A stretch of DNA of 64,000 nt from Candidatus Methylomirabilia bacterium (lineage in GTDB: Bacteria > Methylomirabilota > Methylomirabilia > Rokubacteriales > CSP1-6). The DNA lies in contig JBHIAB010000001.1 of the NCBI GenBank assembly GCA_046758385.1, positions 2,608 to 66,607 on the forward strand, in the 5' to 3' direction. The position numbers were made by a program, and so were the translations under genes. The notes under the pieces are model-generated. The model did not search any database. It saw only the letters and a program-made list of their open reading frames with translations, and had not been told where the DNA came from. Positions 6,078 to 56,638 of the stretch are shown here, piece after piece (positions within the stretch are counted from its first letter, which is position 1; each line of letters opens with the position of its first letter).

Positions 6078-6120
6078 ACAACAAGAGGCCGTGATCGGCT
6101 TTTCCAGATCACGGCCCCCG

Positions 6121-6207: not shown

Positions 6208-6354
6208 AATTTCAACGGGGTATCCGGTGCGTCAACACCGAACACCCCCAACCCCGACACACCCCGCAGAGAGGAGTCGGGATTGGGGCCGCTAAGCCTC
6301 ACTTTTTTATCACTCTTGCGTGGGTGCTTGTCAAGGGTAAAGGCAAGGCCCACC

Positions 6355-7167: not shown

Positions 7168-8228
7168 GGGCGCAGAAGGAGCGCAAGCTTGACGGCACTC
7201 CCAAGCTGGGCGAGAAACTCCGTATCGGCGGCACGATTGTTCATTTTGGTCGTGCTGAGCGCTTGTATCCGCACTGGCCGATCCCGACCTGTATCATTGT
7301 CGATGGACCATACGGGATCAGCGGATTCCCCGGTGACCCGCCCAGTCATCGGGACTTGCCCGACTGGTATGCCCCTCATGTCGCCGCGTGGTCACGGTAC
7401 TCCATGCCACAAACGACCTTATGGTTCTGGGGCACGGAAATCGGCTGGGCGGTTGTTCATCCGCTGCTAGATCGACATGGCTGGGAATATCGCTCGTGCC
7501 ATATCTGGGACAAAGGACTGACCCACATCGCCGGGAACGCCAACTCCCTCACGCTTCGTAAGTTCCCCGTCGTGACCGAAGTCTGCGTCCAATACGTCAA
7601 GGCGGCCCGCTTCTCCGTGAACGGTCGACAGCTGTCAATGCAAGAGTGGCTTCGATACGAATGGGAAAGATCCGGCTTGCCATTGACGCTCACTAATAAA
7701 GCGTGTGGAGTCTTAAACGCGGCGACCCGGAAATACTTCACCAAGTGCCACCTTTGGTACTATCCCCCCGTCGATGCGTTTGTTCGCTTCGTTAAATACG
7801 CCAACAAGCATGGCCGGCCTGAAGGGCGCCCCTACTTCAGCGTGGATGGGACGCGGCCCCTATCGGGCGAAGAATGGGCGAAGATGCGCGCAAAGTTTCA
7901 CTGCGAGGTCGGCGTCAACAATATCTGGCGCGAATCACCTGTCCGTGGCGAAGAGCGGATTAATGGATTCAGGTCGAGCATGCAGTGGAAGTATGCGAGT
8001 CTCCACGGGAGCCAAAAGCCGTTGCGCCTGATCGAGTTAATCGTGCGGGCCAGCACCGATCCCGGAGACGCAGTGTGGGACCCGTTCGGCGGCCTTTGTA
8101 CGACGGCCGTTGCTTGTCTCAGAGCGGGCCGCCGTTGCTTCAGCGCCGAGATCGTTCCCGAGTTCTACCTCGCCGCCAAAGAAAGGGTGGCCGCGTATGG
8201 CAAGGCCGTCAAAACCAGGACGCGTTGA
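7164..8228 (+). CDS. DNA methyltransferase, beta-class N6-adenine/N4-cytosine (PF01555-type; motif IV before motif I)
   Basis: 354 aa. Motif IV variant IIVDGPYG near the N-terminus. Motif I region ELIVRASTDPGDAVWDPFGGLCTTAVACLRAGRRCFSAEI near the C-terminus. Start overlaps transposase stop (ctATGAgg). Confidence 0.7.
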   Translation: MRAQKERKLDGTPKLGEKLRIGGTIVHFGRAERLYPHWPIPTCIIVDGPYGISGFPGDPPSHRDLPDWYAPHVAAWSRYSMPQTTLWFWGTEIGWAVVHPLLDRHGWEYRSCHIWDKGLTHIAGNANSLTLRKFPVVTEVCVQYVKAARFSVNGRQLSMQEWLRYEWERSGLPLTLTNKACGVLNAATRKYFTKCHLWYYPPVDAFVRFVKYANKHGRPEGRPYFSVDGTRPLSGEEWAKMRAKFHCEVGVNNIWRESPVRGEERINGFRSSMQWKYASLHGSQKPLRLIELIVRASTDPGDAVWDPFGGLCTTAVACLRAGRRCFSAEIVPEFYLAAKERVAAYGKAVKTRTR

Positions 8229-8976
8229 GCCGACCAAGTGGGAACATTATGAGTTATGGAGGCGGGTAATCGAAGCCATCCATGCGCTGCCACTTCATTT
8301 CAAGTCAGCGACCGTCATAGAAGGGATGCTCGTCACGGACATATTCACCCTGAACGCTGCACTTGGAGCAACAATAGAAGAGCAGGTCGTGGCCACCCTC
8401 AATGCCCTGCGTCCAGTATGGGATCCGGACAAGAAACTTCAGACTTTTGGCTTCGTGAGGCAAACGCAGACGTTCCCTGATGTGCTGCTTAGAAGAAAGA
8501 CTGACGGGCAATAGATTCTGATGGGGATCGAACTTAAGGGCTGGTATATGCTCGCGAAGGAAGGCGAACCGAGCTTCAGATTCACGGTTAACGCGAACGC
8601 ATGCAATCCCTGGGATTTGATCGTCGTCGTTCCGTGGGTTCTCTCAAATGTTTTGTCCGGCTCGCCCGTCGTCCATCCGGTATTCATTGACCTTACCCGG
8701 TATACTGCTGAGCAGCGGAACTATTATTGGCAATACGAGCGCGAAGCTAAGGGCGACCTCGGCGTAATCCTTGCGGAAGGTGCCACCACCTATCCCGTCA
8801 AGAGCGACAAGATTTCCGACAAGGCCAAGCATGATCCGAGCAGCAACTTTGGCCGACTGGCTCGGTACGGCATCATGGAAGCGTTCGTCAAAGCCACGAT
8901 GAATACGCCTGTTCGAGGCTTGCCAGCCCATCAATGGTTGGCATTTTTCAAGCGCGGGATCAAAGAACCCGATTGA
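8197..8976 (+). pseudogene. PD-(D/E)xK restriction-endonuclease-like gene interrupted by an in-frame TAG (8512-8514); fragments 8197..8514 and 8521..8976
   Basis: Both ORFs are in the same frame. Upstream fragment ends ...QTFPDVLLRRKTDGQ*. Downstream fragment begins (IL)MGIELKGWYM..., so the stop falls exactly between the PD and ExK catalytic elements (PD-x15-ELK). The gene sits directly downstream of the MTase. Confidence 0.5.
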
Positions 8977-9001
8977 AAATAGCCCAGTACCTAGCGCTTT
9001 A

Positions 9002-26074: not shown

Positions 26075-27745
26075 TTAAACCTGCTCGAGAATGGGGAAGA
26101 CGAGCGCAGTGATGTGGGAGCTGATCCGCTTGAGGTTCGTCAACACGTCGAGGTGGATCTCGGAGGTCTCCATCGACTCGGCCAGTCCCGCCCGGAGGCG
26201 GGCCAGGTGGGATTCCCGTAGTTCACGCTCCCGCTGGCGCACGATCGGCCGCTGATCCAGCACCTCCTGGGCCAGGCCCCGGTCGTTGGCCGCGAAGGTC
26301 GCGATGGCGCGCTCCAGGTTCTTGGCGACCATGGCGTGAAAGTCCACGATCTCGGCCTCCCCGGCTTCCGAGAACCGCCGCCCCTGATAGAGCTTCTTTC
26401 GGGCCAGCTCCATCAGGTTCTTGTCGATGATGTCGCCGATGTTTTCCAAGTTTCCGATGAACGAGATCAACGCAATCTCCCGACTCGACAGATCGGGGGA
26501 CATGGTCTCCCGGCTGAGGCGCGTCAGGAAGAGCTTGATCTCCCGCTCCAGGTAGTCCACCTGGTCGTCCCGCCGCTCTACGTCCTCCAGGAGCTCCTGG
26601 CTGTTGGTACGGAAGACCGGGATGACGTCGCGGAGCATCCCCTGCACGACGTCGGCTATTCGAAGAGCTTCGCGCGTGGCCTGGCCGAGGGCCAGGGACG
26701 GCTGGTCCTGGGAGCGCTCGTCCAAGTAACGAGTCTTGAAGGGGTTCTCGCCCTGCTCCTGGTCGGGGACCAGCACCGTGATCAGGCGCGCCGCGAGGGC
26801 GGCGAACGGCAGAAAGAAGGCGCTGATCCCCACGTTGAAGAGGGTGTGGGCGTTGGCGATCTGCCGGGCCGGGGCCGCCGCGCTCCAGGTGACCCACTCG
26901 CTGAAGGGACCGATGAAGGGAAAGATGAGCGCCACCCCCAGCACTTTGAAGGCGATGTGGGCCGCGGCGACCCGTTTGGCATCGGTGGTGGTGCCGACGG
27001 AGGCGGTCAGGGCCGTTACGCAGGTGCCGATGTTGGCGCCCAGCACGATGGCTACTGCGCCAACAGTCGGGAGAAGCCCCTGGCTGGCCAGCGTGATGGC
27101 GAGCCCGATGGTCGCCGCTGACGAGTGCACCAGGGCGCTGAACCCCGCTGCGGCCAGCACGCCGAGCACGGGGCTGTCCCCCAGCGCCATGAAGAGTTGT
27201 TGAGCCAGCGGGTTGTCGCGGAGCGGGGCCATGCCTTCCAGCATCACCTTGAGGCCTAGAAAGATGAGCCCGAATCCCAGGAGCGCTTGGCCCATGTCCC
27301 GCACCGGACGGCGCCGCGCGAAGAAGATCACCGAGAATCCGGCCCCCACGAGGAGGAGGGCGTAGTCGGTGATCTTGAAGGCGATGAGCTGAACCGTGAA
27401 GGTGGTGCCGATGTCGGCCCCCAGGATCACCCCCAGGGTGTGGGCGAAGGGCATGAGCCCCGCGGAGACGAAGCCGATGAGCATGACCGTGGTGGCGGAG
27501 GAGGACTGGATGATGGCCGTCGCCAGGGCGCCGGAGAGGACCGCCATGAGACGGCTGCGCGTCAGGCCGGTCAGGAGGGTGTGAAGGCGGCCCCCCGCAG
27601 CCCGCTGGAGCCCCTCCCCCGTGAGCTGAATGCCGTAGAGAAGCAGCGCCATCCCGCCGAACAGCGCCAGCAGCACCACGGCTAAAGCCTCGGAGGGGGG
27701 CTCACGCCCCCCTTCCGAACCTCCCCCCATCGGCTGCGCGGGCAA
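26075..27745 (-). CDS. Na+/phosphate cotransporter family protein (NptA-like with C-terminal PhoU-like domains)
   Basis: 556 aa. Duplicated Na_Pi_cotrans membrane repeats (QSSSATT), C-terminal soluble PhoU-like helices. N-terminal start uncertain; 44-nt overlap with next gene. Confidence 0.7.
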   Translation of the reverse strand: MPAQPMGGGSEGGREPPSEALAVVLLALFGGMALLLYGIQLTGEGLQRAAGGRLHTLLTGLTRSRLMAVLSGALATAIIQSSSATTVMLIGFVSAGLMPFAHTLGVILGADIGTTFTVQLIAFKITDYALLLVGAGFSVIFFARRRPVRDMGQALLGFGLIFLGLKVMLEGMAPLRDNPLAQQLFMALGDSPVLGVLAAAGFSALVHSSAATIGLAITLASQGLLPTVGAVAIVLGANIGTCVTALTASVGTTTDAKRVAAAHIAFKVLGVALIFPFIGPFSEWVTWSAAAPARQIANAHTLFNVGISAFFLPFAALAARLITVLVPDQEQGENPFKTRYLDERSQDQPSLALGQATREALRIADVVQGMLRDVIPVFRTNSQELLEDVERRDDQVDYLEREIKLFLTRLSRETMSPDLSSREIALISFIGNLENIGDIIDKNLMELARKKLYQGRRFSEAGEAEIVDFHAMVAKNLERAIATFAANDRGLAQEVLDQRPIVRQRERELRESHLARLRAGLAESMETSEIHLDVLTNLKRISSHITALVFPILEQV

Positions 27746-28358
27746 AGCCCGCGCTCGGAGACGCGTGAGCCAGATGGGCGGTCTCGTTCAAGGTGATCAG
27801 TCGGGGTGGGCGCACGACGGTGAGCGAGGCGTTGTCGACCCTGAGGCGCCAGAGCCTGTTGAGCGAAAGACCCAGGAGGTGGCAGAGGTAGGTGCTAATG
27901 ACGCCCCCGTGTGAGACCACCAGCACCTCGCCCCCATCCGGATGATTGGCGACAATCTGCTCGACCACAGCCAGCACCCGCGTCGCGACCTCAGCCAGCC
28001 GCTCCGAGGCGGGAGGCGGGCAGTCCAACGGAGCCAGAAGCCACTGGAGGTAAGGATCCCCGTCTCCCGCTCGGACCTCCTCCACCGTTCGTCCCTCCCA
28101 GGCGCCGAGCGACAGCTCACGGAGGTCATCCAGCACGCTCAGGGGGACGCCGAGCCCTTCTACAGCGATCTCCGCTGTCTCCACGGCGCGCCTGAGGGGG
28201 CTCACATAGGCCGTGGCCAGACGCCGGCCGCGGAGCGCCCGACCCAGGGCCAGCGCCTGGCTGCGCCCAAGTTCTGAAAGGCCGACGTCGATGCTTCCCT
28301 GAAAGCGCCGGGCGGCGTTCCACACACTCTGCCCGTGACGGGCCAAGAGCAGGGTCAT
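27702..28358 (-). CDS. histidine phosphatase family protein (phosphoglycerate mutase-like)
   Basis: 218 aa. LLLARHGQSVWN (RHG catalytic motif), later SHGG. Confidence 0.7.
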   Translation of the reverse strand: MTLLLARHGQSVWNAARRFQGSIDVGLSELGRSQALALGRALRGRRLATAYVSPLRRAVETAEIAVEGLGVPLSVLDDLRELSLGAWEGRTVEEVRAGDGDPYLQWLLAPLDCPPPASERLAEVATRVLAVVEQIVANHPDGGEVLVVSHGGVISTYLCHLLGLSLNRLWRLRVDNASLTVVRPPRLITLNETAHLAHASPSAGFARAADGGRFGRGA

Positions 28359-35306: not shown

Positions 35307-35477
35307 ATGCCTCGGAGGGGGGCTACGCCCCCCTACCCTCGATCATCGGAGGGGGCCTCGACGGCCCCCTCCGAGGCCTCCCCCATGGATTGCGCGGGCC
35401 AAGCCCGCGCTCGAAGGCAGCCAACTCATGCTCCCGAGGAGGACCAAGCGAGGCGGGCTGCCCGCGGCGCACGGCCG

Positions 35478-42587: not shown

Positions 42588-43018
42588 CTTCCCGCCTCTC
42601 CCAAACCCCGAAGTAGCTCACGGCAGCGATCGAGGACGGAGCCCGCTTCCTCGACGGCGACGCGCGCCTCATCCTCCGTATACAGCCTTTGCGGAGGGGC
42701 CCCCGTTTCCTCGTCCCCGTAAAAGCTCACCTCCCGCTCGCGCCGAAGCCGACGGGAGATAGACGCGACCCGGTCGATCTCCTTCCCGAAGGGTTCTGGG
42801 AACTTCTCCCGGTGATCCTTCAGGATGATCCCCACATCGTGGATCCGGGGGACCTCGACGCCCGCGATCCTCAAAGCAGCTTTCAAGGCCAGCTCCACGA
42901 CCTCCTGCGACCTTCGGACGACCAGGTTCCACACTCCCCGCCGGTGAAGACCCTCCGCCTCCAGGAGAATGTCCCCTGCCTGGGTGAGAAGGCCCTCCGC
43001 CATCTCACGGTTCGTCAT
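42584..43018 (-). CDS. HEPN-domain protein (module 2)
   Basis: 144 aa helical. 4-bp overlap with upstream MNT. Paralogous in layout to 51664..52089. Confidence 0.65.
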   Translation of the reverse strand: MTNREMAEGLLTQAGDILLEAEGLHRRGVWNLVVRRSQEVVELALKAALRIAGVEVPRIHDVGIILKDHREKFPEPFGKEIDRVASISRRLRREREVSFYGDEETGAPPQRLYTEDEARVAVEEAGSVLDRCRELLRGLGEAGR

Positions 43019-43551
43019 AGCTCGAAGATCTCCCCGGGCACGTAGTCCGGTTTCAGCTCCCAGTAGCGGATCCTCCCCCGTTTCAAGCGTCGGGCCCCGA
43101 GGCGATCGAGGGAGCTCCGGAGATGCGCCAATATCGCCGAAAAGAACCCCTCACGGTCGAAGAGGATCACGGCATCCTCGACCAGGTCCAAGTAGAGAGG
43201 TGTGAGCCGCTCAGCCTCTTCGGGGCTCTTCAGAACAGGACTGAAGTCCGTGAGGACCCCTTGTTTGCGCAGCGCCGCTAACCGAGGGGCTAAAAGGTCA
43301 TCAGCTGCGCTCAGCCGCTCCTGCCGCGCAAGTCGTCCTCTGGGCAAATCCCTTGCGATGATGAGGAGGTCGATGTCAGACACGGAGGTCGCCTCCCGCC
43401 GGGCCACGGAGCCGAAGAGAACAACCGCGACGAGGGATTCCCCAAGGAGCCCCTTCAAAGCGTCGGTGTAATCAACGGCGAGCTCCCGGAGAGCCCGGTT
43501 GTGTTCCGCTGTCTCCATCCCGCTCTTCCCCTGGTCCAAGAGTTCCCTCAC
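43015..43551 (-). CDS. MNT nucleotidyltransferase (module 2)
   Basis: 178 aa. LFGSVARREATSVSDIDLLII motif. C-terminus YWELKPDYVPGEIFEL nearly identical to the 52086..52604 paralog (YWVLKPDLRPGEIIEL). Confidence 0.7.
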   Translation of the reverse strand: MRELLDQGKSGMETAEHNRALRELAVDYTDALKGLLGESLVAVVLFGSVARREATSVSDIDLLIIARDLPRGRLARQERLSAADDLLAPRLAALRKQGVLTDFSPVLKSPEEAERLTPLYLDLVEDAVILFDREGFFSAILAHLRSSLDRLGARRLKRGRIRYWELKPDYVPGEIFEL

Positions 43552-43994: not shown

Positions 43995-44435
43995 TCAGCG
44001 GACACGCTCGTCGATCCGGCCCAGGATCTCCGTGATCCCCTGGAGAATCGGCCGGGTGGCCTCCTGGGTTTCCCGGATGAGCTGGCGGGTGGCCTCAGTC
44101 TCACGAGTGATCAGCTCCTGGGTCTCCCGGCTCATCTGCTGGAGAAGCTGGCGATTGCCTTCGGCCTCACGAACGATCAACTCCTGGGTCTCCCGGATGA
44201 GCTGGCGGCTGGCCTCCGTCTCACGAGTGATCAGCTCCTGGATCTCCCGGCTCATCTGCTGGAGAAGCTGGCGATTGCCTTCGGCCTCACGAACGATTAG
44301 CTCCTGGGTCTCCCGAATGAGGCCGCCGATCTCTCGCCGGGTCAGGCGGCCATTGTAGACCGAGAAGACGCCGACAATGAGCCCGAAGATGGTGATGCCG
44401 GACGCGAAGAGGGTGAAGATCTCAACAAAACTCAT
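43995..44435 (-). CDS. membrane-anchored coiled-coil protein with two 40-aa tandem repeats
   Basis: Start taken at MSFVEIFTLFASGITIFGLIVGVF (TM helix). Then LIRETQELIVREAEGNRQLLQQMSRE(I/T)QELITRETEA(S/T)RQ appears twice. Encoded by a near-perfect 120-bp tandem DNA repeat. Confidence 0.5.
   Translation of the reverse strand: MSFVEIFTLFASGITIFGLIVGVFSVYNGRLTRREIGGLIRETQELIVREAEGNRQLLQQMSREIQELITRETEASRQLIRETQELIVREAEGNRQLLQQMSRETQELITRETEATRQLIRETQEATRPILQGITEILGRIDERVR
44062..44330. repeat. 120-bp tandem direct repeat (~2.2 copies, ~1 mismatch between full copies) inside CDS 43995..44435
   Basis: 44101-44160 vs 44221-44280 differ at one base. 44062-44100 vs 44182-44220 and 44161-44181 vs 44281-44301 extend the period. 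Confidence 0.85.
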
Positions 44436-46622: not shown

Positions 46623-48364
46623 GGCTGGAGAGGCGGATTCAGAACGCATGAGAACGTGATGGTTGGGCGCCCGCTGATCCTGTTCGGCTTGGGCTTCTTC
46701 GGCTTCTTGCCCTTCTTATGGTCGTCATCATCGTCGTCGTCGTGTCCTTTCCCATGCCCACCACTCGAGGACGCGTTTTCCGCTAGGACGACGCCGGTGA
46801 TGGTGGGGCGGCCGCTGATACGGATCCGCCCATGCGCGGCGACGAGTCCGGTGAGAGGTTTGCTGGAGCTGATCTTGATCTCGTCGCCGGCCACCAACAG
46901 CGTATCGGTGAGGTGGGCGGTCATTGTGGGGCGTCCCGAGACTTTGATGTCTCCTGTGGCGAGTACAGTGACCCTCCACGATAACGCGCCGCTCCCCGCG
47001 CGACCCGAAATCTTGGCGTCCCCCTCGAAGAAATAGGTTCCATCGACGGCGGTCTTGCCGCTGAACGTCCACTTGGCAGGGTGCCCCGGCCGATATTTCC
47101 AGCCCTGGAACTTCTGTCCTTTGTGCAACGTTGCGAGGTGCTTCGGCGGGTCGTCGCCGTCGAAGACCTCCCCATTGGATTTCAGGTGAAACACCTGCCC
47201 GACGGGAAGATCGACCTTGGCGGCGGTCAGGAAGTCAGCCGGGTCGATCGCGGGGATGTCTTTTGGATCGAATCCTCCTCCGACACCGGGCCCGCCTATA
47301 TCTACCTTCTTTGAAGCCGAGAACTTCCCGCTGGCAGTAGCGTCCCCGGCGATCGACACGCGATCACGAATCTTGAGATCTCCATTCGCGTGGACGTTCC
47401 CACACTGTCCATTGATCGTTGCCCGGTCGTCGATCTTGAGATCCCCGTTCACCAGTATGGCGTCGGTCACGTTGAAGGCAATTAGCCCCACCGGGATCTT
47501 GACGTCGAGCCGGTTGACGATGTTCGACTTCAGGGCCACGTGCAAGGCTTCTGTCAGGGGGCGCCCGCCGAACTCGATCTCGGCGAACCTGACCCCCGCG
47601 GGCACAGAATCGAAGACGATGGTGACTTCGGATCCGTCGGGCCCCACCACCGTGGTCGGCTGACTGACGAGACTCACCTGCTGGCCGTCCTCCGGGAAGA
47701 AGAGGGTCGCGGTGACGTTCTTCGCGGGGTTCTTGCTCCTGCCCACAGTGACGGTCAAGAAGAGATGCCCTGCGTCCTGAAATGGTTCGGAGCTGATGTC
47801 GTCGCCGGTATCGAACAGGCCGTCTGGCCCAGCGCTGGTGATCTGACCGATCCGCACGGTCAGGGAGACGCCTCCGGAGGTCGGATCGGTGGACGGTACC
47901 GTGACCTCGGGGCAGGTGTAGCGAAAGCGGTTGCCCCAGCCGTCCTCCAGATGCTCATTCGTGAAAATCATCTCCTTGAAGTACGGCCCCTGCCACCCCA
48001 TCCCGAGCCCGCCCCGATTCGCGGTGTCGAAAAGCGCGGTCGAAGGGTTGAAACTGGAATCGCAGAGGGTGTGAGGCCCTTGGAGATTGTTCAGTTCTTC
48101 CAGGCTCTTCGGGACCCGGCCCACGTCGCCGATGAAGCCGAAGGTTGCCTCCCCGGGGATCCCGGCGATCACCTCCACTAGCTTGGCCAGCTTGCGGCGG
48201 GTCGCTTCTTCGTTTGAGACCGTGATGTCGAGAACCAGCGGGAGCGCCAGGGCGGCCCCCGTCGCAGCGAGGGCGAGGAGCACCAGCAGCCCGAGGAGCG
48301 TGAAGCCCCTGGTCCCTACGCTTCCTCCCACCTCATCGGTCACCCGTCGAGAGCCAAGTTCCAC
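46619..48364 (-). CDS. giant pseudopilin-like protein (581 aa) with beta-helix-like repeat domain and acidic/basic tail
   Basis: N-term ...VGTRG|FTLLGLLVLLALAATGA (Gly not Glu at +5). WQGPYF, DGWGNRFRY, SAGPDGLFDTGDDIS GspG motifs. Then repeated GDLKI/ISGRPTIT units. Tail GHGKGHDDDDDDDHKKGKKPKKPKPN. Confidence 0.6.
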   Translation of the reverse strand: MELGSRRVTDEVGGSVGTRGFTLLGLLVLLALAATGAALALPLVLDITVSNEEATRRKLAKLVEVIAGIPGEATFGFIGDVGRVPKSLEELNNLQGPHTLCDSSFNPSTALFDTANRGGLGMGWQGPYFKEMIFTNEHLEDGWGNRFRYTCPEVTVPSTDPTSGGVSLTVRIGQITSAGPDGLFDTGDDISSEPFQDAGHLFLTVTVGRSKNPAKNVTATLFFPEDGQQVSLVSQPTTVVGPDGSEVTIVFDSVPAGVRFAEIEFGGRPLTEALHVALKSNIVNRLDVKIPVGLIAFNVTDAILVNGDLKIDDRATINGQCGNVHANGDLKIRDRVSIAGDATASGKFSASKKVDIGGPGVGGGFDPKDIPAIDPADFLTAAKVDLPVGQVFHLKSNGEVFDGDDPPKHLATLHKGQKFQGWKYRPGHPAKWTFSGKTAVDGTYFFEGDAKISGRAGSGALSWRVTVLATGDIKVSGRPTMTAHLTDTLLVAGDEIKISSSKPLTGLVAAHGRIRISGRPTITGVVLAENASSSGGHGKGHDDDDDDDHKKGKKPKKPKPNRISGRPTITFSCVLNPPLQP

Positions 48365-48432
48365 CGCGCATCTACGATCTTTCGCTGGCAGGCCCTATCT
48401 CCCCTGACCTTATCCTCTCCCCCGGTCTATCG

Positions 48433-49059
48433 CTATTTGAGCCGGCTGCAGATGTCATCTCCGCCTGGAGCCGGCCCCGAATCCGCCGGGGAGTCGGGAT
48501 CGGTGTCGATGGTCCCATCCGGCCCCGCCGAGCAGGTCCACACCACCTTCGCCGGAGAGTCTGCGGGATTCGCATTGCCGATGTTTACCAGATAGCGGTT
48601 CCCCCAGGGGTCCTCAGTGATTTTCTCCAGGTACGGCCCCCGCCAACGAAACCGACCGTTCGAGGAGTATGGGGTGGTCCCGGGGGCGTTCTTGATCAGA
48701 TGATCCTCAAGATCGTCGGCCTTTCCCGGTGTGAACCATTTGTTGTTACCGGGGGGGTTGTCGATAGGATCGTTGCCCGGCCCTTGGAGGATGTCGAAGT
48801 CAGGGGTTCCTGTGGTCCGCGTGCCATCCGTATAGATCGGGAAATGGCCCACGTCTCGGGTGAGGCGGATGATGCTCGCCCCGATGACCTTGACATCTCC
48901 CTCGGCCTTTTCTCTCTTGGCATCTTCCACGTAGCTGATCACCATAGGAGTGATCGCCCCCAGGAGCAGGCCGATCACCGCCAGGACGACGATCATCTCC
49001 AAGAGGCTGATTCCCAACTCCCCTCCGAACTTCCGTCTCCTCATGCTTATCAGCTCCAT
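48433..49059 (-). CDS. gspG: pseudopilin, closest to canonical GspG
   Basis: G|ISLLEMIVVLAVIGLLLGAITP; WRGPYLEKITEDPWGNRYLV; SAGPDGTIDTDPD. Confidence 0.7.
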   Translation of the reverse strand: MELISMRRRKFGGELGISLLEMIVVLAVIGLLLGAITPMVISYVEDAKREKAEGDVKVIGASIIRLTRDVGHFPIYTDGTRTTGTPDFDILQGPGNDPIDNPPGNNKWFTPGKADDLEDHLIKNAPGTTPYSSNGRFRWRGPYLEKITEDPWGNRYLVNIGNANPADSPAKVVWTCSAGPDGTIDTDPDSPADSGPAPGGDDICSRLK

Positions 49060-49094
49060 TCCTTCAAGGATTGGAAAGTCTCGCGGGCTCCCGA

Positions 49095-49832
49095 TCAGGC
49101 TCCGGGCAAGATCGCGCTCGCCCTTCCCAGGTTCTTCCCTATATCATCAGATCCGGCGGCGACACTTTCCCGGTTCAGAGGCGTCTCGAGCAAACGGTCT
49201 GGGCCAACGGAGAGGATCCAGCCGTTGCCCAACACCCGCATGATCTCTGATAATCCCGCCTGACCCCGAATCGCGACCTCGCCGCCAAAGATCAGGGGTA
49301 GAACATTGATGATGTAGGCCCGGTCCCATGGGTCACTGATGACGGGTTCCATGTAGGGGCCCTGCCAGTCGGGAAAGTCGACCACACTCGGCCTTCTGAC
49401 CAGGTAGTCGTTGATGTCCAGGGCAGTGCTCGGAGAAAAATTCACGCAGCTCCGGCCGATAAAAACGGTGGCATCGAAGAAGCCGATGTTCAAGAAGTCC
49501 GGGAGGGGCGTGCCGAGCGTCGGATCTATAGATGTCGGCACCCCAGATTGGAGGAAGCACGGTCCGGCCCCCCCGACCACCCCGATCTTTTCCTCCCCGG
49601 GCCACTGGCGCGTGTCCTGGCGGAACTTCATCATGGCGTTGGCAAGGGTCAACAGCTCTCTGGCAGCCTTGGTCTCCTTCGCCTCCTCGATCCGATCCAT
49701 CGTCATGGGAATGGCTACGGACGCGACGATCGTGGTCATCGCGACGACCGCCGTAGTCTCGTAGAGGGTCACCCCGCGGCAATCCCTGAAGCGGGCGAGA
49801 AGGAATCTGAGCGTTCTGACGATGCGTCTCAT
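49095..49832 (-). CDS. pseudopilin, GspG-like (paralog 5)
   Basis: ...DCRG|VTLYETTAVVAMTTIVASVAIP; WQGPYMEPVISDPWDRAYIINV; SVGPDRLL. Confidence 0.7.
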   Translation of the reverse strand: MRRIVRTLRFLLARFRDCRGVTLYETTAVVAMTTIVASVAIPMTMDRIEEAKETKAARELLTLANAMMKFRQDTRQWPGEEKIGVVGGAGPCFLQSGVPTSIDPTLGTPLPDFLNIGFFDATVFIGRSCVNFSPSTALDINDYLVRRPSVVDFPDWQGPYMEPVISDPWDRAYIINVLPLIFGGEVAIRGQAGLSEIMRVLGNGWILSVGPDRLLETPLNRESVAAGSDDIGKNLGRASAILPGA

Positions 49833-50029
49833 GGCGTTGTCTTCTCGACATCTCTAACTGAGAGCGCACTCAAATGCGTCACGATTATAGCTGCACCCAA
49901 AGAATGGGGCCGGGGGGAGAGGAAGCGATGCCGCTCCCCCCGGTAAAGTCCCCCAAACGCCTTCTTCCAAGAAGTACTGGCGCGGCGCTGCTAAGACCCG
50001 CCTCGTGTCTTATGCGCTACTACTTGTCC

Positions 50030-50701
50030 CTAGTTTTGGACGATCTTCTTGCCGAGGCTCCGGCCGATGTCGTTACCATTCGGATCCAAGTCCGAATCTA
50101 CAAAGTCGGTGGTCAGGGTCTGGTCGGATCCACCCGAGATGACCCACCCGTAGCCCAAGTAATTGTGGGCACCCAAGTCCTCGGCGTCAAACAACGGGCG
50201 GGGGTTAAAGATATAGGCACGGCCCCAGGGATCCGCGGTGATCGGATCCATGTAGGGTCCATTCCAGTTGGAATAGCCTGAGGGCCCAGTGCTCGCCGAC
50301 AAGTAGGTGTTGAGGTCCACGGGCGGAGCGCAGGTATTATTGCCAAGGCAGGTGTTGGGAGTCAGGGTGAGGTCTGTCAGAGCGGGCAGTGGGGCGCTGC
50401 CGCTAACGAGGAAGATTGTTTGGTCTGGGATCCCATCGTTGCCGCTGGTATCCATCTCGAGTTCCCCAGGCCACTTTCCCGTGTCGTTGAAGAAGCTAAA
50501 GGCAGCCTTGAAGATGGTTTCCGTCTCCTGCTTCGCGGCAGTGCCCTCGGCGCTCTGAATCTGCTGGAGGGCCACAGGCACCGCGACGGCGGCGATAATC
50601 CCCGCCATGGCGACCGCCGCCGTGATCTCGTAGAGGCTGATGCCTCGTGAATCCCTGAGGTGCCTCAGCAACGCCTTGAACATTCTGGCCATCCGTCCCA
50701 T
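50030..50701 (-). CDS. pseudopilin, GspG-like (paralog 6)
   Basis: ...DSRG|ISLYEITAAVAMAGIIAAVAVP; WNGPYMDPITADPWGRAYIF. RBS GGAGGG 7 nt upstream of ATG 50701. Confidence 0.7.
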   Translation of the reverse strand: MGRMARMFKALLRHLRDSRGISLYEITAAVAMAGIIAAVAVPVALQQIQSAEGTAAKQETETIFKAAFSFFNDTGKWPGELEMDTSGNDGIPDQTIFLVSGSAPLPALTDLTLTPNTCLGNNTCAPPVDLNTYLSASTGPSGYSNWNGPYMDPITADPWGRAYIFNPRPLFDAEDLGAHNYLGYGWVISGGSDQTLTTDFVDSDLDPNGNDIGRSLGKKIVQN

Positions 50702-50753
50702 CTTCTCACCCTCCTTGTCTCGAGAGCTTCTCTCGAGATGTTATGGGTTTGCG

Positions 50754-51524
50754 TTAACTGACGCCAGACTGAACCTTCTCAATCCGCTTGCCAAGATTTT
50801 GCCCGACATCGTCTGTCGCAGGTGCGAGCACGGAGTCGGTCAGCCTTGTCTGGAGCAGCCGATCCGGCCCCACACTGAGGACCCAGGCATATCCCAGATC
50901 CCCCCCGGTCTCGATGGCCCCGGTAACGGCGTCCGGCGTGCCCGCGGCCCCGACACCGGCTGTGATCGCCTCGGCGAACATCAAGGGGAGGACATTGATG
51001 ACGTACGCCTGATTCCAGGGGTCAGCCGTAATGGGCTCCATGTAGGGACCCTGCCAGCTGGGGTAATCCACCGGGTTAGGCTTTCTGACCAGGTAGTCGT
51101 TGATGTTCAGGGCATTGGTGTGGCTGAAGGTCGCGCAGAGAGATGCCTGAGGCAGAAAGTCGCCGGTATCGATCGTTCCGATCTCAGCGCGCGTCAGCGT
51201 GGGAAGAAGCGCGCTCGTCTGTGGATCACTTCCTGGCCTCCCCGTCTGGAGGAAGCACGATGTGCCATCGGTCCTGATCTCCACCTCGCCGGGCATCCGG
51301 CCTGTGTCCTCGAAGAAGCTCGCGATAGCTTTGGTGATGATGGTCACTTCCTGGGCGGCCTTGGCACTCTTGGCTGCCTCTATCTTGTCCAGCGCCACCG
51401 GCAGAGCCACCGCCGCGAGGATGGCGGTCATGGCGACGACCGCCGTGGTCTCGTAAAGCGTGACCCCGCGGACATCCTTGAGGTGTCGGATAAGACCCCT
51501 GAGCAATCTCGTTACGGGCTTCAT
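50754..51524 (-). CDS. pseudopilin, GspG-like (paralog 7, promoter-proximal)
   Basis: Start chosen at MKPVTRLL (51524), preceded by GGAGG and the sigma-54 promoter. ...DVRG|VTLYETTAVVAMTAILAAVALP; WQGPYMEPITADPWNQAYVINV; SVGPDRLL. Confidence 0.7.
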   Translation of the reverse strand: MKPVTRLLRGLIRHLKDVRGVTLYETTAVVAMTAILAAVALPVALDKIEAAKSAKAAQEVTIITKAIASFFEDTGRMPGEVEIRTDGTSCFLQTGRPGSDPQTSALLPTLTRAEIGTIDTGDFLPQASLCATFSHTNALNINDYLVRKPNPVDYPSWQGPYMEPITADPWNQAYVINVLPLMFAEAITAGVGAAGTPDAVTGAIETGGDLGYAWVLSVGPDRLLQTRLTDSVLAPATDDVGQNLGKRIEKVQSGVS

Positions 51525-51555
51525 GTCCTTTGTCCTCCGCCGGTTGAGGCAGATA

Positions 51556-51571
51556 GCAATCATCGGGCCAG
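51556..51571 (-). promoter_or_regulatory. sigma-54 (RpoN) -24/-12 promoter
   Basis: Minus-strand reading CTGGCCCGATGATTGCT against consensus TGGCACG-N4-TTGCW. GG..GC spacing exactly 12. About 20-nt leader with GGAGG before ATG 51524. Confidence 0.5.
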
Positions 51572-51663
51572 CGTTAAGTGCTTGATTTCTTGGGGAAAAC
51601 GCCTCGAACAATAAGAGGAGAAAGCTACAAAATTTGGGAGTTCCCTACAAATCTTGAGGATCA

Positions 51664-52089
51664 TTAATCAGGGCCGTATCGATCGATAGCGGCCCGGACG
51701 GTGTCCAACACCCGCCTTGCCTTTGCCAGGGCGTCTCCCCCGTCTTCCGCATCGAAGAGCTGGCTAGCCGGGACCCCATCCGGTGACCCATAAAAGGCAG
51801 GCTCCCGGTCTAACGCCAAGCTGTCAGAGTCATAGGCCAGCCGGTCCGCCGCCTTCCGGTCAAGGACTTTCCTGCGGGCCAGCTCTTTTTTGATCAGCCG
51901 TCCAAGCAGGTGAGATTTCGGATACTCGATGCCCCACAGACGGAACAGGCCCTTGATCGCCAGCTCTGCGGCCTCCTGACACTTGCGTACCACTCGATGA
52001 TAATGTTCTGCCCGCTGAGACCCCTCGGCTTCTCTCAGGATGATCTCAGCGTCCGCCAGATACGATCGAGCGGCTCTGTCGTTCCTCAT
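51664..52089 (-). CDS. HEPN-domain protein (module 3)
   Basis: 141 aa helical. 4-bp overlap with MNT. Paralogous layout to 42584..43018. Confidence 0.65.
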   Translation of the reverse strand: MRNDRAARSYLADAEIILREAEGSQRAEHYHRVVRKCQEAAELAIKGLFRLWGIEYPKSHLLGRLIKKELARRKVLDRKAADRLAYDSDSLALDREPAFYGSPDGVPASQLFDAEDGGDALAKARRVLDTVRAAIDRYGPD

Positions 52090-52604
52090 AGCTCGATGAT
52101 CTCGCCGGGCCTGAGATCAGGCTTCAGCACCCAATACCAGCTCCCGTCGGGGAGAGACTTCTTTCGGGATCCCAGGGCACGCAATCGTTCGCGGACGACC
52201 TCCAATTCCTTGCGGAATTGTTCTCTGGGGTCGTAAAGAATCACCGCTTCTTCCACCATGTCGAGGAAGATGAGGGGGTGCGCCCTTGCTTCCTCCTCTG
52301 AAAGGGCAAGGAAGGCGGGTTCAAGGGGTCGGCCGCACGCCTCTAGGTCGCGATACTCTCTGCTTTCCCGAACCTCAGCCAGTAAGGGAAGAAAGCTCTT
52401 GGTCCTCTTGGCATAGCTCTTGGGAGGGTTCTGAAGGATAACCAAGATGTCTAAATCGCTACCCGGCCGATCAGTCCCTCTGGCGGCAGAGCCGAAGAGC
52501 GCCACCGCAATGAGCTGTTCCCCCAGGGCGTGCTTCAACGCGGCGCTGACCTTCCTCGCCAGAGCCATCACCTTCTCGGTATGACCCGGGAACTTTGTGC
52601 TCAT
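52086..52604 (-). CDS. MNT nucleotidyltransferase (module 3)
   Basis: Start at MSTKFPGHTEK (52604). LFGSAARGTDRPGSDLDILVIL. C-term YWVLKPDLRPGEIIEL. The ORF-track N-terminal extension (…GEGEGEGEG…) is translation of the palindromic repeat and is rejected. Confidence 0.7.
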   Translation of the reverse strand: MSTKFPGHTEKVMALARKVSAALKHALGEQLIAVALFGSAARGTDRPGSDLDILVILQNPPKSYAKRTKSFLPLLAEVRESREYRDLEACGRPLEPAFLALSEEEARAHPLIFLDMVEEAVILYDPREQFRKELEVVRERLRALGSRKKSLPDGSWYWVLKPDLRPGEIIEL

Positions 52605-52638
52605 GTTTGGATTCTTCCGGGTTCGACGTGGCTGCTGT

Positions 52639-52689
52639 CCTTCCCCCTCACCCTCGCCCTCTCCCCCAAAGGACCCAAAGGGGAGAGGG
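52639..52689. repeat. GC-rich palindromic intergenic repeat, copy 1 (CCCTCACCC..GCCCTCTCCCC-loop-GGGGAGAGGG)
   Basis: Perfect 10-bp inverted repeat with 13-nt loop, preceded by conserved CCCCTCACCCTCGCCCTCTCCC. Confidence 0.6.
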
Positions 52690-52705
52690 AACTCTGTCGA
52701 GGAGG

Positions 52706-54106
52706 TCAGCCGCCCTTGAAGCGCTCGGGGTCGATCCCATACTTTTTGACCCGGTACCACAGGCTCCGCTCGTTGATCCCGAGCCGCTTGGCGGCAACGG
52801 CCTGGACCCCTCGCGCTTCCCGGAGGGCTTCGATAATCCGTTCCCGCTCTAATGCGGCAAGGCGCTCGTCCAGGGAGCCTGCCGCCGCGGAACTCTCGGT
52901 CGCCGGCGCGGAGGGGTGGAGGTGCAGGGGGAGGTCTTCCTTCTGGATAAGCTCTCCCTCGGCCATGATCGCCGCGCGCTCGATGCAGTTTCGAAGCTCG
53001 CGGACGTTTCCCGGCCAGAAGTAGGCCATGAGCCGCTCCATCGCCTCACCGGACAGTCCCCTCACGTTCCTGTCCTCGGTGTCGGCGATCTCCTGGAGGA
53101 AACGCTCCACGAGGAGCGGGATGTCCCCCACCCGCTCTCGGAGCGGCGGAAGGACGATGGCGAAGACATTGAGGCGGTAGTAGAGGTCCTCCCTGAACTC
53201 CTTCCGTCGGACCGAGTCCGCCAGATCCTTGTTGGTGGCCGCGATGACGCGGACATCCACCCGAATCGGCTTGGTGCCCCCGACGCGGTAGATCTCCTGG
53301 TTCTCGATGGCCCGGAGGATCTTGGCCTGGGTCGTGAGGGCCATGTCTCCCACCTCGTCCAGGAAGAGGGTGCCCCCGTGGGCGAGCTCAAATTTGCCCG
53401 GCCTTTGCGCCGTGGCCCCGGTGAAGGCTCCCCGCTCGTGGCCGAAGAGCTCCGACTCGAGGAGACCGTCCGGGATGGCGGCGCAGTTGACCTTCACCAG
53501 CGGAGCCTCTCGTCTCGGGCCGTTTCGATGGACCAACTCGGCCACCAGCTCCTTCCCCGTCCCCGACTCCCCCTGGATGAGGACTGTCGCCTGGCTCCGG
53601 ACCACCTTCTCCAGGAGCACGAAGACCTCTTGCATCCGGCCGCTCTGCCCGATGATGCCGGGGAAGTCATACCGCCGCTGGAGGCGCTCACGGAGCTCTC
53701 GGACCTCGCGCTGCAGTAGCCGCTTCTCCAGCGCTCGAGCGATCACCACTTCCAACTCGTTCACCCTGAACGGTTTGGTGAAGAAATCGTAGGCCCCCCG
53801 AGCCAGGGCTTCCATGGCCTGCTGTTTAGTGGCTACCCCCGACATCACGATAACGATCAGATCCGGCGCGAAGGCCTTGGCCCGGCTTACGAACTCGATC
53901 CCGGAGAGTCCGGGAAGCTTCACGTCGGTCACGGCGATGTCGATAGTTTGAGAGCGCAGGCACTCGAGGGCCTTTTCGGCGGTCGAGGAAACCTCCACCG
54001 CATAGCCTTGCTTTGTCAGGGCTTCTTGAAGGGCGAAACGGACAGACTCCTCATCCTCCACCACGAGGATGGCGATGGACTCCGGCGCCACGCTACGCTC
54101 GGTCAT
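52706..54106 (-). CDS. sigma-54-dependent response regulator (NtrC/PilR family: REC + AAA+ + HTH)
   Basis: 466 aa. REC (LVVEDEESVRFAL...DIAVTDVKLPG). AAA+ with GESGTGKE Walker A and GAFTGA sigma-54 contact motif. C-terminal Fis-type HTH. Confidence 0.85.
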   Translation of the reverse strand: MTERSVAPESIAILVVEDEESVRFALQEALTKQGYAVEVSSTAEKALECLRSQTIDIAVTDVKLPGLSGIEFVSRAKAFAPDLIVIVMSGVATKQQAMEALARGAYDFFTKPFRVNELEVVIARALEKRLLQREVRELRERLQRRYDFPGIIGQSGRMQEVFVLLEKVVRSQATVLIQGESGTGKELVAELVHRNGPRREAPLVKVNCAAIPDGLLESELFGHERGAFTGATAQRPGKFELAHGGTLFLDEVGDMALTTQAKILRAIENQEIYRVGGTKPIRVDVRVIAATNKDLADSVRRKEFREDLYYRLNVFAIVLPPLRERVGDIPLLVERFLQEIADTEDRNVRGLSGEAMERLMAYFWPGNVRELRNCIERAAIMAEGELIQKEDLPLHLHPSAPATESSAAAGSLDERLAALERERIIEALREARGVQAVAAKRLGINERSLWYRVKKYGIDPERFKGG

Positions 54107-54143
54107 CGTGGGTCGCTCTCCGACCGTGTTAGCCTTGATCCGC

Positions 54144-54190
54144 CCTGCACCCTCACCCCAGCCCTCTCCCTGAAAGGGAGAGGGAGAGGA
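54144..54190. repeat. GC-rich palindromic intergenic repeat, copy 2
   Basis: CCTGCACCCTCACCCCAGCCCTCTCCC TGAAA GGGAGAGGG; 9-bp IR. Confidence 0.6.
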
Positions 54191-55708
54191 TCAAGAGGCC
54201 GTCGTGCCCTTAACGGGCAGGAGTATGGCGAACTCTGTGCCATGATCATGCGAGCTCCTTGCCTTGATCTCCCCCCCGTGATCGGCGACGGCACGATAGG
54301 CGATGGGGAGGCCAAGGCCGGACCCCTCCTTCTTCGTCGTGTAGAAGAGGGTGAAGATCCGGTCCAGATCCTCGGCCGGGATGTAGGAGCCGCTGTTGAT
54401 GACACGCACGGCGATGACCTGCCCGGGTTCTATGTCGGCCGGGGCTTCCTCCTGGCTTACGGCCACCGCAATCCGGCCACCCGCCGGGGTGGCCTCGAAG
54501 GCATTGATAATGATGTTCACGAACGCCTGGCTCAGACGATCCGGATTGCCCGAGATGGGAGGAAGGGAGGAGGGGATGAGCTTCTCCAGCTCCACCCCCT
54601 TCTCCCAAAAGCGCATCTCGCTCCATACCGTCGACACAGCGTCCGCCACGAGACTCTCGACCTGGCAGAGGACCGGTTCCCGGACCTGCACCTGGGCCAG
54701 CGTCCTGATCTCGTCGGTGAGGCGCCGGACCCGCTCCAGCTCCGCTTCGATTCGTTCCACGTAACGACGGTCGGGGCTATCCGGAGCAATAGTGTCGCCA
54801 ATAAGGTCGGTGAGGGTCTGAACCGCAAGGACGCTGCCGCCGATCTCATGGACGATGCTGGCCCCCAGCGCCCCCAACGCGGCCAGTTGATCCACGCGAC
54901 GGATCTCTCTCTCAATGGCCTGAACCTGAGCGAGATCCTGAATGGCGAGGATCGCCGCCCGGCTCTCTCCTATGTGCGAGTCTACCGGGCCAATGGTTCC
55001 CCTCACCATCACGCGTCTGCCATCCCGCAAGGCCAGAATGAGATGAGGGAGCGTCGTCGGCGTCTCGGCCGTGAAAGCCTCGCGCAACGCCCGAAGGAGC
55101 TGGGCCTGTCCCTCGCTCGGTTCCAGGACTTCCCACATTGTCTTCCCCACCAACTGCTCTGGCGCCAGACCGAGTATCCGACGGGCTTCGGCGTTGGCAT
55201 CCAGGATCTCCCCGGCGGGGCTGAGGGTGATGATTCCCTCCGGGAGGCGGTCGAGGATGTCTGTAGCCCTGGCGTACTTCTCAAAGGAGAGGAGGAGGTA
55301 GTTCAGGCGGTTGGTAAGCCCGGAGATTTCATCGGTTTCGCGCGCCGGCGGGCGCTCGGCCGAAGAAGGCATCGTCTGCTCCAGCCGGCCAAGCATCTGG
55401 CGGATGGGGTGAACGATGGCGACCGCGATGGCAATCCCGAGGAGAAGAGCCAGCCCTCCCCCGACACCGATCACCCATAAGGTGGTTTCCCGAAGCGCCT
55501 GGGCCTCAGCAATGGGGAGAAGCGCAAAAACGCCGGCGCCCAGCGACTGAGTCGTGAGGCGGATGGCCCACAACCCCACGGCCATGGCAAGTCCCATGAG
55601 GACCAGGGGGAGGAACACGATCAGACGGATGCCGGTCAGCCGTCTGGCCCGTCCAATGACGCGGCGAAGGGTAAGCCCCTGCCGCCTGTCAGCTACCTGC
55701 GATTTCAT
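54191..55708 (-). CDS. sensor histidine kinase with PAS domain (PilS/NtrB-like partner of the sigma-54 regulator)
   Basis: 505 aa. Two TM helices, PAS-like segment, H-box LAALGALGASIVHEIGGSV. ATP-binding N/G1/G2 boxes (INAFEAT, GSGLGL). Confidence 0.8.
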   Translation of the reverse strand: MKSQVADRRQGLTLRRVIGRARRLTGIRLIVFLPLVLMGLAMAVGLWAIRLTTQSLGAGVFALLPIAEAQALRETTLWVIGVGGGLALLLGIAIAVAIVHPIRQMLGRLEQTMPSSAERPPARETDEISGLTNRLNYLLLSFEKYARATDILDRLPEGIITLSPAGEILDANAEARRILGLAPEQLVGKTMWEVLEPSEGQAQLLRALREAFTAETPTTLPHLILALRDGRRVMVRGTIGPVDSHIGESRAAILAIQDLAQVQAIEREIRRVDQLAALGALGASIVHEIGGSVLAVQTLTDLIGDTIAPDSPDRRYVERIEAELERVRRLTDEIRTLAQVQVREPVLCQVESLVADAVSTVWSEMRFWEKGVELEKLIPSSLPPISGNPDRLSQAFVNIIINAFEATPAGGRIAVAVSQEEAPADIEPGQVIAVRVINSGSYIPAEDLDRIFTLFYTTKKEGSGLGLPIAYRAVADHGGEIKARSSHDHGTEFAILLPVKGTTAS

Positions 55709-55732
55709 GCCGGGTGGAGGTGATTTTCCCCC

Positions 55733-55775
55733 TCACCCCGCCCTCTCCCCCAGTGGGGGCGAGCGACAATGGGCC
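55733..55775. repeat. GC-rich palindromic intergenic repeat, copy 3 (degenerate stem)
   Basis: TTTTCCCCCTCACCCCGCCCTCTCCCCC AGT GGGGGCGAG. Confidence 0.5.
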
Positions 55776-55825
55776 AGTGGGGGCCGGATTCCTTCGGATC
55801 AGGGTTAAAAGACTGCTCAGAATAT

Positions 55826-55993
55826 GAGAGAGGTCACGACGCCAAACCACGTGACAGTCACGGAGGTCACCACGATGGCGACCAGCCATTTGAAACTCTT
55901 GTCGATCCGGCCCTCCACCTCCCGCTGCGATTCCGCTATCGCCTTTCGCAGCTCGCCGATCTCGGAAATGACGCGCTCAAAGCCCTGCTCCAT
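55826..55993 (-). CDS. small membrane protein (55 aa), unannotated in ORF track
   Basis: GGAGG 7 nt upstream of ATG 55993. MEQGFERVISEIGELRKAIAESQREVEGRIDKSFKWLVAIVVTSVTVTWFGVVTSLIF: amphipathic helix + C-terminal TM. Confidence 0.35.
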
Positions 55994-56071
55994 GTCTTAT
56001 CCTCCTGTTCCATGTTCGCTTCGCTCTATCCAACCATCTGGCTTCAGCGGGAAGCCGCGCTTCGGCTCCTT

Positions 56072-56638
56072 TCAACGCTCGGCCTCGAAGATGGGAATGG
56101 CCTCTCCCTCGAGCTCGATTCGACGGCGCCGGCCAGCCCGTTCCAGCACCACCCCGTCGGGACGGATCTCCACGACCCGCTCCTCCCCGAGCCGCTCTCC
56201 CTCGCTCAAGAGACGGCCATCGATGGAGGCCACTTTCTCTGAGCCCGAGATGATGACAGCCTTCACGGTGTAGGAAGGAAGCGGGGCGGGCGGAGGCGGG
56301 GGAGGCAACGGCTTGGCGACGGGACTCTTGGCACTCTTGGGGGCACGGAGGGCCCGCTCCTCCTCAGCCGTCAGGAACGGATCTCGTCCCCAAGTCCCCT
56401 CGAACCGCTTGAGCCACAATGCGTAGTCATCCCTGGCAAGGATGGCGACCGCAGTGCGAGAGGGAGTGGAGCTAGGTCCGGGCTCGTCAAGCCTTGCCGG
56501 TGCTTGAGCAACTGGCCGCCGGGCCGGAGACCGCCCCCTGAACCTTTTTGTGAGGGGCGAGGTGAAGAAGGCCCACACCATCGTTGCCAGCAGCAGGACC
56601 GTAATGACGATGCGCCGGATCTCCACTACTTCCCCCAC
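56072..56638 (-). CDS. PilP/GspC-like secretin-interacting protein
   Basis: 188 aa. N-terminal TM, Pro-rich linker (PPPPPPAP). C-terminal beta-domain YTVKAVIISGSEKVASIDGRLLSEGERLGEERVVEIRPDGVVL. Confidence 0.45.
   Translation of the reverse strand: MGEVVEIRRIVITVLLLATMVWAFFTSPLTKRFRGRSPARRPVAQAPARLDEPGPSSTPSRTAVAILARDDYALWLKRFEGTWGRDPFLTAEEERALRAPKSAKSPVAKPLPPPPPPAPLPSYTVKAVIISGSEKVASIDGRLLSEGERLGEERVVEIRPDGVVLERAGRRRRIELEGEAIPIFEAER

Follow-up and report, generated by a model that had tools for sequence, protein, structure and literature searches.

Three copies of a repeat in a pilus-associated operon

The 64-kb window analysed here, that is the whole stretch of DNA under study, comes from a metagenome-assembled genome of Candidatus Methylomirabilia and carries on its minus strand a pilus-associated operon in which three copies of a short GC-rich repeat, identified below with the BoxC element, stand between consecutive genes. 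In transcription order the operon runs from a small open reading frame (ORF) through a PAS histidine kinase and a sigma54 regulator to an MNT-HEPN gene pair, and the region 52400-56000, which holds the repeats, was inspected letter by letter. The small ORF (58 aa, 55817-55993) encodes a small membrane protein and is preceded by further pilus genes on the same strand including type II secretion system (T2SS)-E/F-like, PilM and PilO-like members. The sensor histidine kinase (54191-55708) is PilS/NtrB-like with a PAS-HisKA-HATPase arrangement and the sigma54-dependent response regulator (52706-54106) is PilR/NtrC-like with receiver, AAA+ and Fis-type helix-turn-helix (HTH) domains. The MNT nucleotidyltransferase (52086-52604) and the HEPN protein (51664-52089) form a toxin-antitoxin pair that sits between the regulator and several pilin-like paralogues, all of them again on the minus strand.

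An earlier note on this DNA had placed one copy downstream of the regulator, one between regulator and kinase and one upstream of the kinase, and both the existence of the copies and their placement were confirmed, with limits that we refine to 52645-52689, 54150-54184 and 55730-55765 for copies 1, 2 and 3 respectively. Copy 1 occupies the spacer between the regulator and the MNT gene, 16 nucleotides (nt) past the regulator stop and 40 nt short of the MNT start, and so marks the upstream edge of the toxin-antitoxin pair. Copy 2 lies in the 84-nt kinase-regulator spacer (54107-54190, minus strand), 6 nt past the kinase stop and 43 nt short of the regulator ATG, and is flanked by a 7-nt inverted repeat (TTGATCC/GGATCAA); the same spacer contains the Shine-Dalgarno sequence GGAGAG 9 nt before the regulator ATG. 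Copy 3 is found between the 58-aa ORF and the kinase, 49 nt past the upstream stop and 21 nt short of the kinase ATG. All three are intergenic by the deposited annotation, and a second assembly of the same strain, 99.93% identical across 14 kb, has the repeats unaltered. If the copies were placed at random among the window's 60 junctions (36 when only sizeable ones are counted), the probability of finding them on three consecutive junctions would be approximately 0.002-0.005.

The shared sequence had been written in the earlier note with an NNN spacer, and in this literal form it has no match even when two mismatches are allowed, the true gap between CCCTCACCC and GCCCTCTCCC (before GCCC) being 2, 2 and 1 nt in copies 1, 2 and 3. 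The relaxed pattern CCCTCACCC-N{0,6}-GCCCTCTCCC gives three matches in the window, at 52645-52665, 54150-54170 and 55730-55749, all on the plus strand, and none in 100 dinucleotide-preserving shuffles of it. Independent repeat finding returned the same three-member family (D14). Read on the minus strand, which is the sense strand of the genes, the architecture is CCCTCTCCC, a loop, GGGAGAGGG, 2-3 nt and GGGTGAGGG. In copy 1 this is CCCTCTCCC (52689-52681), a 15-nt loop, GGGAGAGGG (52665-52657), CGA and GGGTGAGGG (52653-52645); in copy 2 the order is CCCTCTCCC, TTTCA, GGGAGAGGG, CTG and GGGTGAGGG; and in copy 3 it is CGCTCGCCC, CCACTGG, GGGAGAGGG, CG and GGGTGAGGG. The loop and complementary arm described previously are present in copies 1 and 2, where the arm is a perfect GGGAGAGGG; in copy 3 the distal arm is degenerate with two mismatches (GGGGGCGAGCG on the plus strand, CGCTCGCCCCC on the minus strand).

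Copy 1 also accounts for an artefact in the ORF track. An N-terminal extension of the MNT ORF (52605-52760, minus strand), which begins at a GTG at 52760, reads the copy as ...GGEGEGEGEG..., and the suspicion that this GEGEGEGEG stretch is spurious proved correct, the ORF 52086-52760 reading ...FGGEGEGEGEGQQ... ahead of the true ATG at 52604.

Identity of the repeat

By block order and block sequence the repeats are copies of BoxC, alias the PIT element, the TMECO intrastrand-triplex motif or HPGQ, a non-coding three-block repeat of approximately 35-45 nt that consists of a pyrimidine block, a loop, a first purine block, 2-3 nt and a second purine block. Earlier work on this repeat family is said to include that of Bachellier et al. 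in the 1990s and of Hoyne and Maher in 2000 and 2002. BoxC was the first name of the element, to which Hoyne and Maher later gave that of PIT, for potential intrastrand triplex, and it is the same as TMECO (PMC4666352); a further name of the family is HPGQ (see also Kaplan et al. 2016, PMC5100583). The published TMECO pattern is 5'-CCCTCNCCC-N3-6-GGGNGAGGG-N3-GGGNGAGGG (Holder et al. 2015, PMC4666352), and the blocks CCCTCNCCC, GGGNGAGGG and GGGNGAGGG follow one another on one strand, in the class II purine-motif arrangement, in all three of our copies. The blocks match exactly in copies 1 and 2 and with one mismatch in block 1 in copy 3. When up to one mismatch per block and relaxed loops are allowed, the three copies are the only fits to the pattern in the 64 kb. 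Copy 2, with loops of 5 and 3 nt, meets the published pattern exactly, whereas copy 1 (15 and 3 nt) has a first loop beyond the published 3-6 nt and copy 3 has loops of 7 and 2 nt against the published 3-6 and 3. Among the matches listed in the distribution analysis below the first loop varies from 1 to 20 nt across phyla, so the published loop range looks too narrow.

Direct comparison with E. coli supports the same assignment. Both G-blocks are invariant in an alignment to the E. coli TMECO sequences (Table 1, PMC4666352), where 23 copies are tabulated for E. coli K-12. When copy 2 was searched by blastn against 5,426 complete E. coli genomes, 4,342 of them were matched, and the copy is identical over 42 of 42 nt to an E. 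coli locus in NZ_AP045177. An Rfam scan of 52300-56100 at E<=10 returned only sub-threshold microRNA noise, with no Rfam family for the element.

The three blocks (CCCTC[T/G]CCC, GGGAGAGGG and GGGTGAGGG) and their order are thus the same here as in BoxC/TMECO, as are the second loop of 2-3 nt, which is C-rich as in 'type B' (CTG/CG), the strictly intergenic and locally clustered placement, the presence/absence differences between related genomes and the lack of a U-tract. There are also differences, in that the host is a member of the Methylomirabilota whereas TMECO has been catalogued in Proteobacteria, the first loop of copy 1 is 15 nt, in copy 3 the second loop is 2 nt long and there is one more mismatch, and the copies stand as direct repeats, each in a spacer of its own along consecutive junctions, whereas in E. 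coli inverted A+B pairs within one spacer are typical. The repeats CCCTCTCCCXX(X)GGGAGAGGG of Enterobacter sp. 638, found in duplicate or triplicate at gene 3' ends (Taghavi et al. 2010), have identical hairpin arms, but that paper describes the hairpin alone, without the third block, and presumes a terminator role that it did not try.

The earlier note had likened the copies to REP/BIME elements. That they belong to a dispersed intergenic palindromic repeat family stands; the identification with REP/BIME (PU) was rejected on account of the match to BoxC/PIT/TMECO. REP/PU/BIME elements are likewise short, GC-rich, palindromic, extragenic and multi-copy with a preference for gene 3' ends, and they are transcribed into mRNA hairpins able to stabilise upstream segments. 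They are however a different sequence family, and BoxC has a third, non-palindromic block and no mosaic BIME organisation. To our knowledge no Y1 (RAYT) transposase has been described for BoxC, unlike REP.

Block 1 of copy 3 (CGCTCGCCC, 55757-55765) corresponds to the E. coli 'mm' type CCCTCGCCC plus one further change. This block-1 variant is also present in loci L107, L068, L114, L095 and L017, and its hosts range from E. coli to Deinococcus and Planctomycetes. Against block 2 it has a G·A mismatch, and a G·T/U wobble would let it pair with block 3, GGGTGAGGG, a hint that the variant may form an alternative hairpin between blocks 1 and 3.

Comparison with orthologous loci

In order to compare gene order we obtained orthologues by protein search and contig retrieval, which gave eight contigs (72 kb in all) of uncultured relatives, one of them annotated as Candidatus Rokubacteria, with kinases 50-59% identical to the kinase here; a metagenome scan returned only kinase paralogues of 24-34% identity that were of no use for synteny. 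In all eight orthologous loci the kinase stop overlaps the regulator start by 4 nt (ATGA or GTGA), against the 84-nt spacer here, and no TM-like motif occurs anywhere in the 72 kb. Gene overlaps of 4 nt are generally taken to permit translational coupling. The start and N-terminus of the regulator and the C-terminus of the kinase are conserved with respect to the orthologues, and for this reason the 84-nt spacer must be regarded as the novelty. Upstream of the kinase the spacer is 108 nt long in the window, against a range of -37 to +71 nt among the orthologues. Because the element is absent and kinase and regulator overlap in eight of eight loci we read the copies as lineage-specific insertions, and the comparison indicates that they expanded three adjacent and formerly tight junctions, one of them splitting an overlapping kinase/regulator pair.

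The neighbourhood of copy 1 differs as well. Five orthologous loci reach far enough beyond the regulator, and pilin-like genes come immediately after it in four of them and another toxin-antitoxin pair in one. MNT-HEPN is at this position in none of the five, so that the pair adjoining copy 1 is lineage-specific as well. The pair in the remaining locus (L324, 8975-9693) consists of DUF433 and PIN-like/DUF5615 proteins and takes the place that MNT-HEPN has here, and the spacer between regulator and pilin genes may be a site at which toxin-antitoxin pairs are inserted with particular frequency. A second MNT-HEPN pair at approximately 42600-43500 on the window's minus strand has 70-77% DNA identity to the pair at 51664-52604, with no BoxC/TM copy beside it. 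On the other side of the kinase, the 58-aa ORF is approximately 30% identical to small membrane proteins of 68-71 aa in the orthologous loci and lacks their last ~12 residues, a C-terminal loss that may be a consequence of the rearrangement that introduced copy 3.

Structure and transcription

The RNA folding that had been suggested as a check predicts hairpins in all three copies, with perfect stems of 10-11 bp in copies 1 (11 bp) and 2 and a perfect core of 5 bp in copy 3, and the folding energy of the minimal elements lies between about -18 and -23 kcal/mol. A GC-rich hairpin straight after each stop codon might be taken for an intrinsic terminator or insulator separating kinase, regulator and toxin-antitoxin pair into transcription units of their own; terminators and insulators were among the possible roles named in the earlier note, and termination was presumed for the Enterobacter sp. 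638 repeats in the genome paper. Against this, none of the copies has a T/U run behind it on either strand, the sequence after the stems being G-rich on the minus strand and mixed on the plus strand, and a terminator scan found nothing at the three sites. A promoter scan found no sigma70-like site on the minus strand, and hence none past a copy from which transcription could restart. As far as PMC4666352 relates the experiments of Hoyne and Maher 2002, PIT elements had neither promoter nor terminator activity in E. coli, and the E. coli studies cited in the same paper are described as showing no effect on RNA polymerase. We consider the terminator explanation to be already refuted, if weakly, and give it hardly any credence.

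The same sequences could also act at the level of DNA, the G-rich non-template strand folding, when transiently single-stranded, into a purine-motif triplex or G-quadruplex (G4) that would modulate transcription elongation or replication across the kinase/regulator genes or favour recombination and with it variation at the pilus locus. Four tracts of three or more G with loops of 1-3 nt, a canonical G4 motif, and mirror-symmetric R and RH blocks are kept in all three copies. In the literature the family is described as a hairpin plus a third G-block that in vitro is capable of a purine-motif triplex or a G-quadruplex, and the E. coli strand on its own adopts a stable triplex fold in vitro, or a G4 when K+ is present (PMC4666352, PMC5100583). 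TM loci are moreover far more variable among E. coli strains than control intergenic sites (PMC4666352), and the neighbourhood here is rearranged too: a toxin-antitoxin pair has been inserted, the small ORF is truncated and the pilin paralogues vary. No sign of a triplex was however seen in E. coli duplex DNA by circular dichroism or nuclear magnetic resonance, or by dimethyl sulphate footprinting in vivo (PMC4666352). For RNA, G-quadruplex formation was rejected as the hairpin always wins in a G4-aware energy model; none of the 10 single nucleotide polymorphisms (SNPs) between the two assemblies falls in or beside a copy, and the family has no orientation bias relative to genes. A DNA structural switch is therefore an improbable explanation in our view, though less so than termination.

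Position relative to genes and tests of mobility

Among the matches listed in the distribution analysis below, junction occupancy falls from convergent (27%) through tandem (18%) to divergent gene pairs (6.6%; convergent versus divergent P = 1e-5). In the tandem contexts of the same matches there is no strand preference (36 vs 38), and the elements lie nearer to the stop before them than to the start after them, at median distances of 47 and 86 nt.

This preference for junctions with a gene 3' end, noted also by Kaplan 2016 (PMC5100583) and in the Enterobacter 638 paper, is one of several observations that speak for functional RNA elements. The stem-loops would then sit at cistron boundaries and block 3'-to-5' exonucleases or direct processing, giving the small ORF, kinase, regulator and toxin-antitoxin segments differing stability or stoichiometry, and alternation between G4 and hairpin would add a switch. 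The hairpins are strong, the G-rich strand is the sense strand in all three copies, which lie 6, 16 and 49 nt past the upstream stop, and the copies are clustered on consecutive junctions. The REP element in malEFG is a precedent for such a stabiliser role. Set against these points, the element is absent from all eight orthologous operons, which manage with overlapping genes, and the hairpin of copy 3 is degenerate. As the family has no strand bias, no sense-strand feature such as the G4 or the third block appears to be selected by transcription direction, and purifying selection that removes insertions from promoters would produce a preference for 3' ends just as well. The E. coli results on RNA polymerase, promoter and terminator activity, to the extent that PMC4666352 relates them, also count against it. 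A REP-like stabiliser is nevertheless the main rival to insertion of a selfish or neutral repeat, ahead of the DNA-level switch and the terminator, although we hold it to be unlikely.

We also looked for marks of transposition. The flanks of 148 family members have inverted and direct repeats no better than shuffled-pair controls (mean 4.3 vs 4.2 nt) and nothing conserved past 2-3 nt. With neither terminal inverted repeats nor target-site duplications beyond controls in these members, a miniature inverted-repeat transposable element was rejected. A RAYT-like mobiliser next to the element was not supported either, all-vs-all clustering of 789 ORFs from the 120 loci listed yielding generic paralogues only and no recurrent neighbour. 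The only transposase found in the 64-kb window is of the DDE type. It lies in a 3.5-kb segment (5507-8998) bounded by 28-nt imperfect inverted repeats, with a GC content of 0.58-0.60 against 0.64-0.69, that encodes the DDE transposase-like protein (6070-7167; weak IS1/IS240 matches) and an N6/N4 DNA methylase (7164-8228), and is probably an insertion sequence or transposon with methylase cargo.

Distribution across bacteria

The published catalogue comprises 3,610 TMECO copies in 262 proteobacterial genomes (PMC4666352). An exact scan for the core of the element (19 specified bases) in one genome per GTDB species (596 Gb) gave at least 120 stretches. The matches listed come from Pseudomonadota, Cyanobacteria, Planctomycetota, Verrucomicrobiota, Chloroflexota, Acidobacteriota, Myxococcota and Thermodesulfobacteriota, and further from Binatia, Nitrospirae, Omnitrophota, Elusimicrobia, Deinococcus and Rokubacteria. 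Chance would account for about 13-260 occurrences of the core by itself in 596 Gb, the figure varying with GC content, but the remaining pyrimidine block lies 1-20 nt upstream in 120 of the 127 core matches listed (94%) and at only 0.9% of random positions in the same loci, and chance was rejected as the source of the cross-phylum matches. Representative elements from each phylum have the complete three-block architecture. As far as these sequences go, the same architecture is present in at least a dozen phyla, beyond the proteobacterial catalogue.

The element is scarce on mobile replicons. Curated phage genomes (2.3 Gb) contain essentially none, with five weak partial matches. It was found in 223 of 72,556 plasmid records, megaplasmids and chromosome-sized records being among those matched, and in E. 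coli only 15 of 21,657 element places are on plasmids. Full elements do occur in IMG/VR contigs; since many such contigs are predicted prophage regions we do not take these occurrences as phage carriage.

Near-identical elements in E. coli, Methylomirabilota, Chloroflexota, Planctomycetota, Deinococcota and Cyanobacteria make it conceivable that BoxC is a pan-bacterial insertional element, spreading by an unknown host-encoded or structure-driven route and actively remodelling operons, with local spread to the three adjacent junctions here. We regard this wider reading as a doubtful one. If it were true, insertion would have uncoupled an overlapping kinase/regulator pair and marked the edge of a toxin-antitoxin insertion.

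Origin of the copies

Taking these observations together, we consider it likely that the three copies are lineage-specific insertions of a selfish or neutral, structure-prone BoxC repeat that have added mRNA hairpins to the pilus kinase/regulator operon. The element carries no gene, and neither terminal inverted repeats nor target duplications were detected among family members; it therefore probably spreads or persists as a selfish or neutral sequence. Insertions would be tolerated mainly just past stop codons. With its G-rich strand as the sense strand each copy would add to the polycistronic mRNA a strong GC hairpin followed by a G-tract tail and no U-run, a structure that could serve at most as a barrier to 3' exonucleases and not as a terminator. 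Translation of kinase and regulator was probably uncoupled by the insertion of copy 2, the Shine-Dalgarno sequence in the spacer presumably serving the regulator. At the DNA level single strands of the same sequence could fold into a triplex or G4. The sequence has been linked to local instability in E. coli, and instability of that type fits the rearranged neighbourhood seen here.

Several points weigh against this interpretation. Neutrality or selfishness is argued from an absence of evidence, and the 3'-end bias is also expected of a functional 3'-untranslated region element. The family-wide gene statistics come from a crude ORF caller of our own that was validated on the window. All three copies lie within 3.1 kb and none in the remaining 61 kb of the window, and their clustering on consecutive junctions in the same orientation is non-random and could be due to a local function under selection instead of spread within the locus. 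The orthologues, at only 50-59% identity, are too distant to date the insertions, and no empty site was seen in a close relative.

Taken alone, the identification is an annotation point, providing a new host for a repeat family known since the 1990s and making the GEGEGEG extension a recognisable artefact of ORF calling. The occurrence in many phyla together with near-absence from curated phages and rarity on plasmids sharpens the question of how BoxC spreads or why it recurs. The locus itself offers a natural before/after comparison, with a 4-nt overlap in the relatives and an 84-nt element-bearing spacer here.

Other features of the window

The pilin-like genes downstream of MNT-HEPN comprise at least four tandem paralogues with a T2SSG fold (48002-51611, minus strand). 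The 10 SNPs that distinguish the window from the 14-kb contig of GCA_046758825.1 all fall in 48137-50374, within these genes, an indication that of all features of the locus pilin variation changes fastest. A sigma54-type -24/-12 match, TGGCCCGATGATTGCT (51555-51570, minus strand), with one mismatch to TGGCAC-N5-TTGCW, precedes the first pilin-like gene by approximately 30 nt, counted from its annotated start (51524), lies downstream of the PilR-like regulator, and is a plausible candidate for a target promoter of the kinase/regulator two-component system.

Two other repeats were found away from the operon junctions. A unit of 120 nt is duplicated in tandem at 44061-44300, in perfect register and with 95% identity (D6). 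A pair of 71-nt repeats at 27690-27760 and 35346-35416, 77% identical and each with two GC-rich hairpins (TCGGAGGGGGGCTCACGCCCCCCTTCCGA... and ...GCGCGGGCAAAGCCCGCGC; D11), is a candidate for a second interspersed repeat family of this genome.

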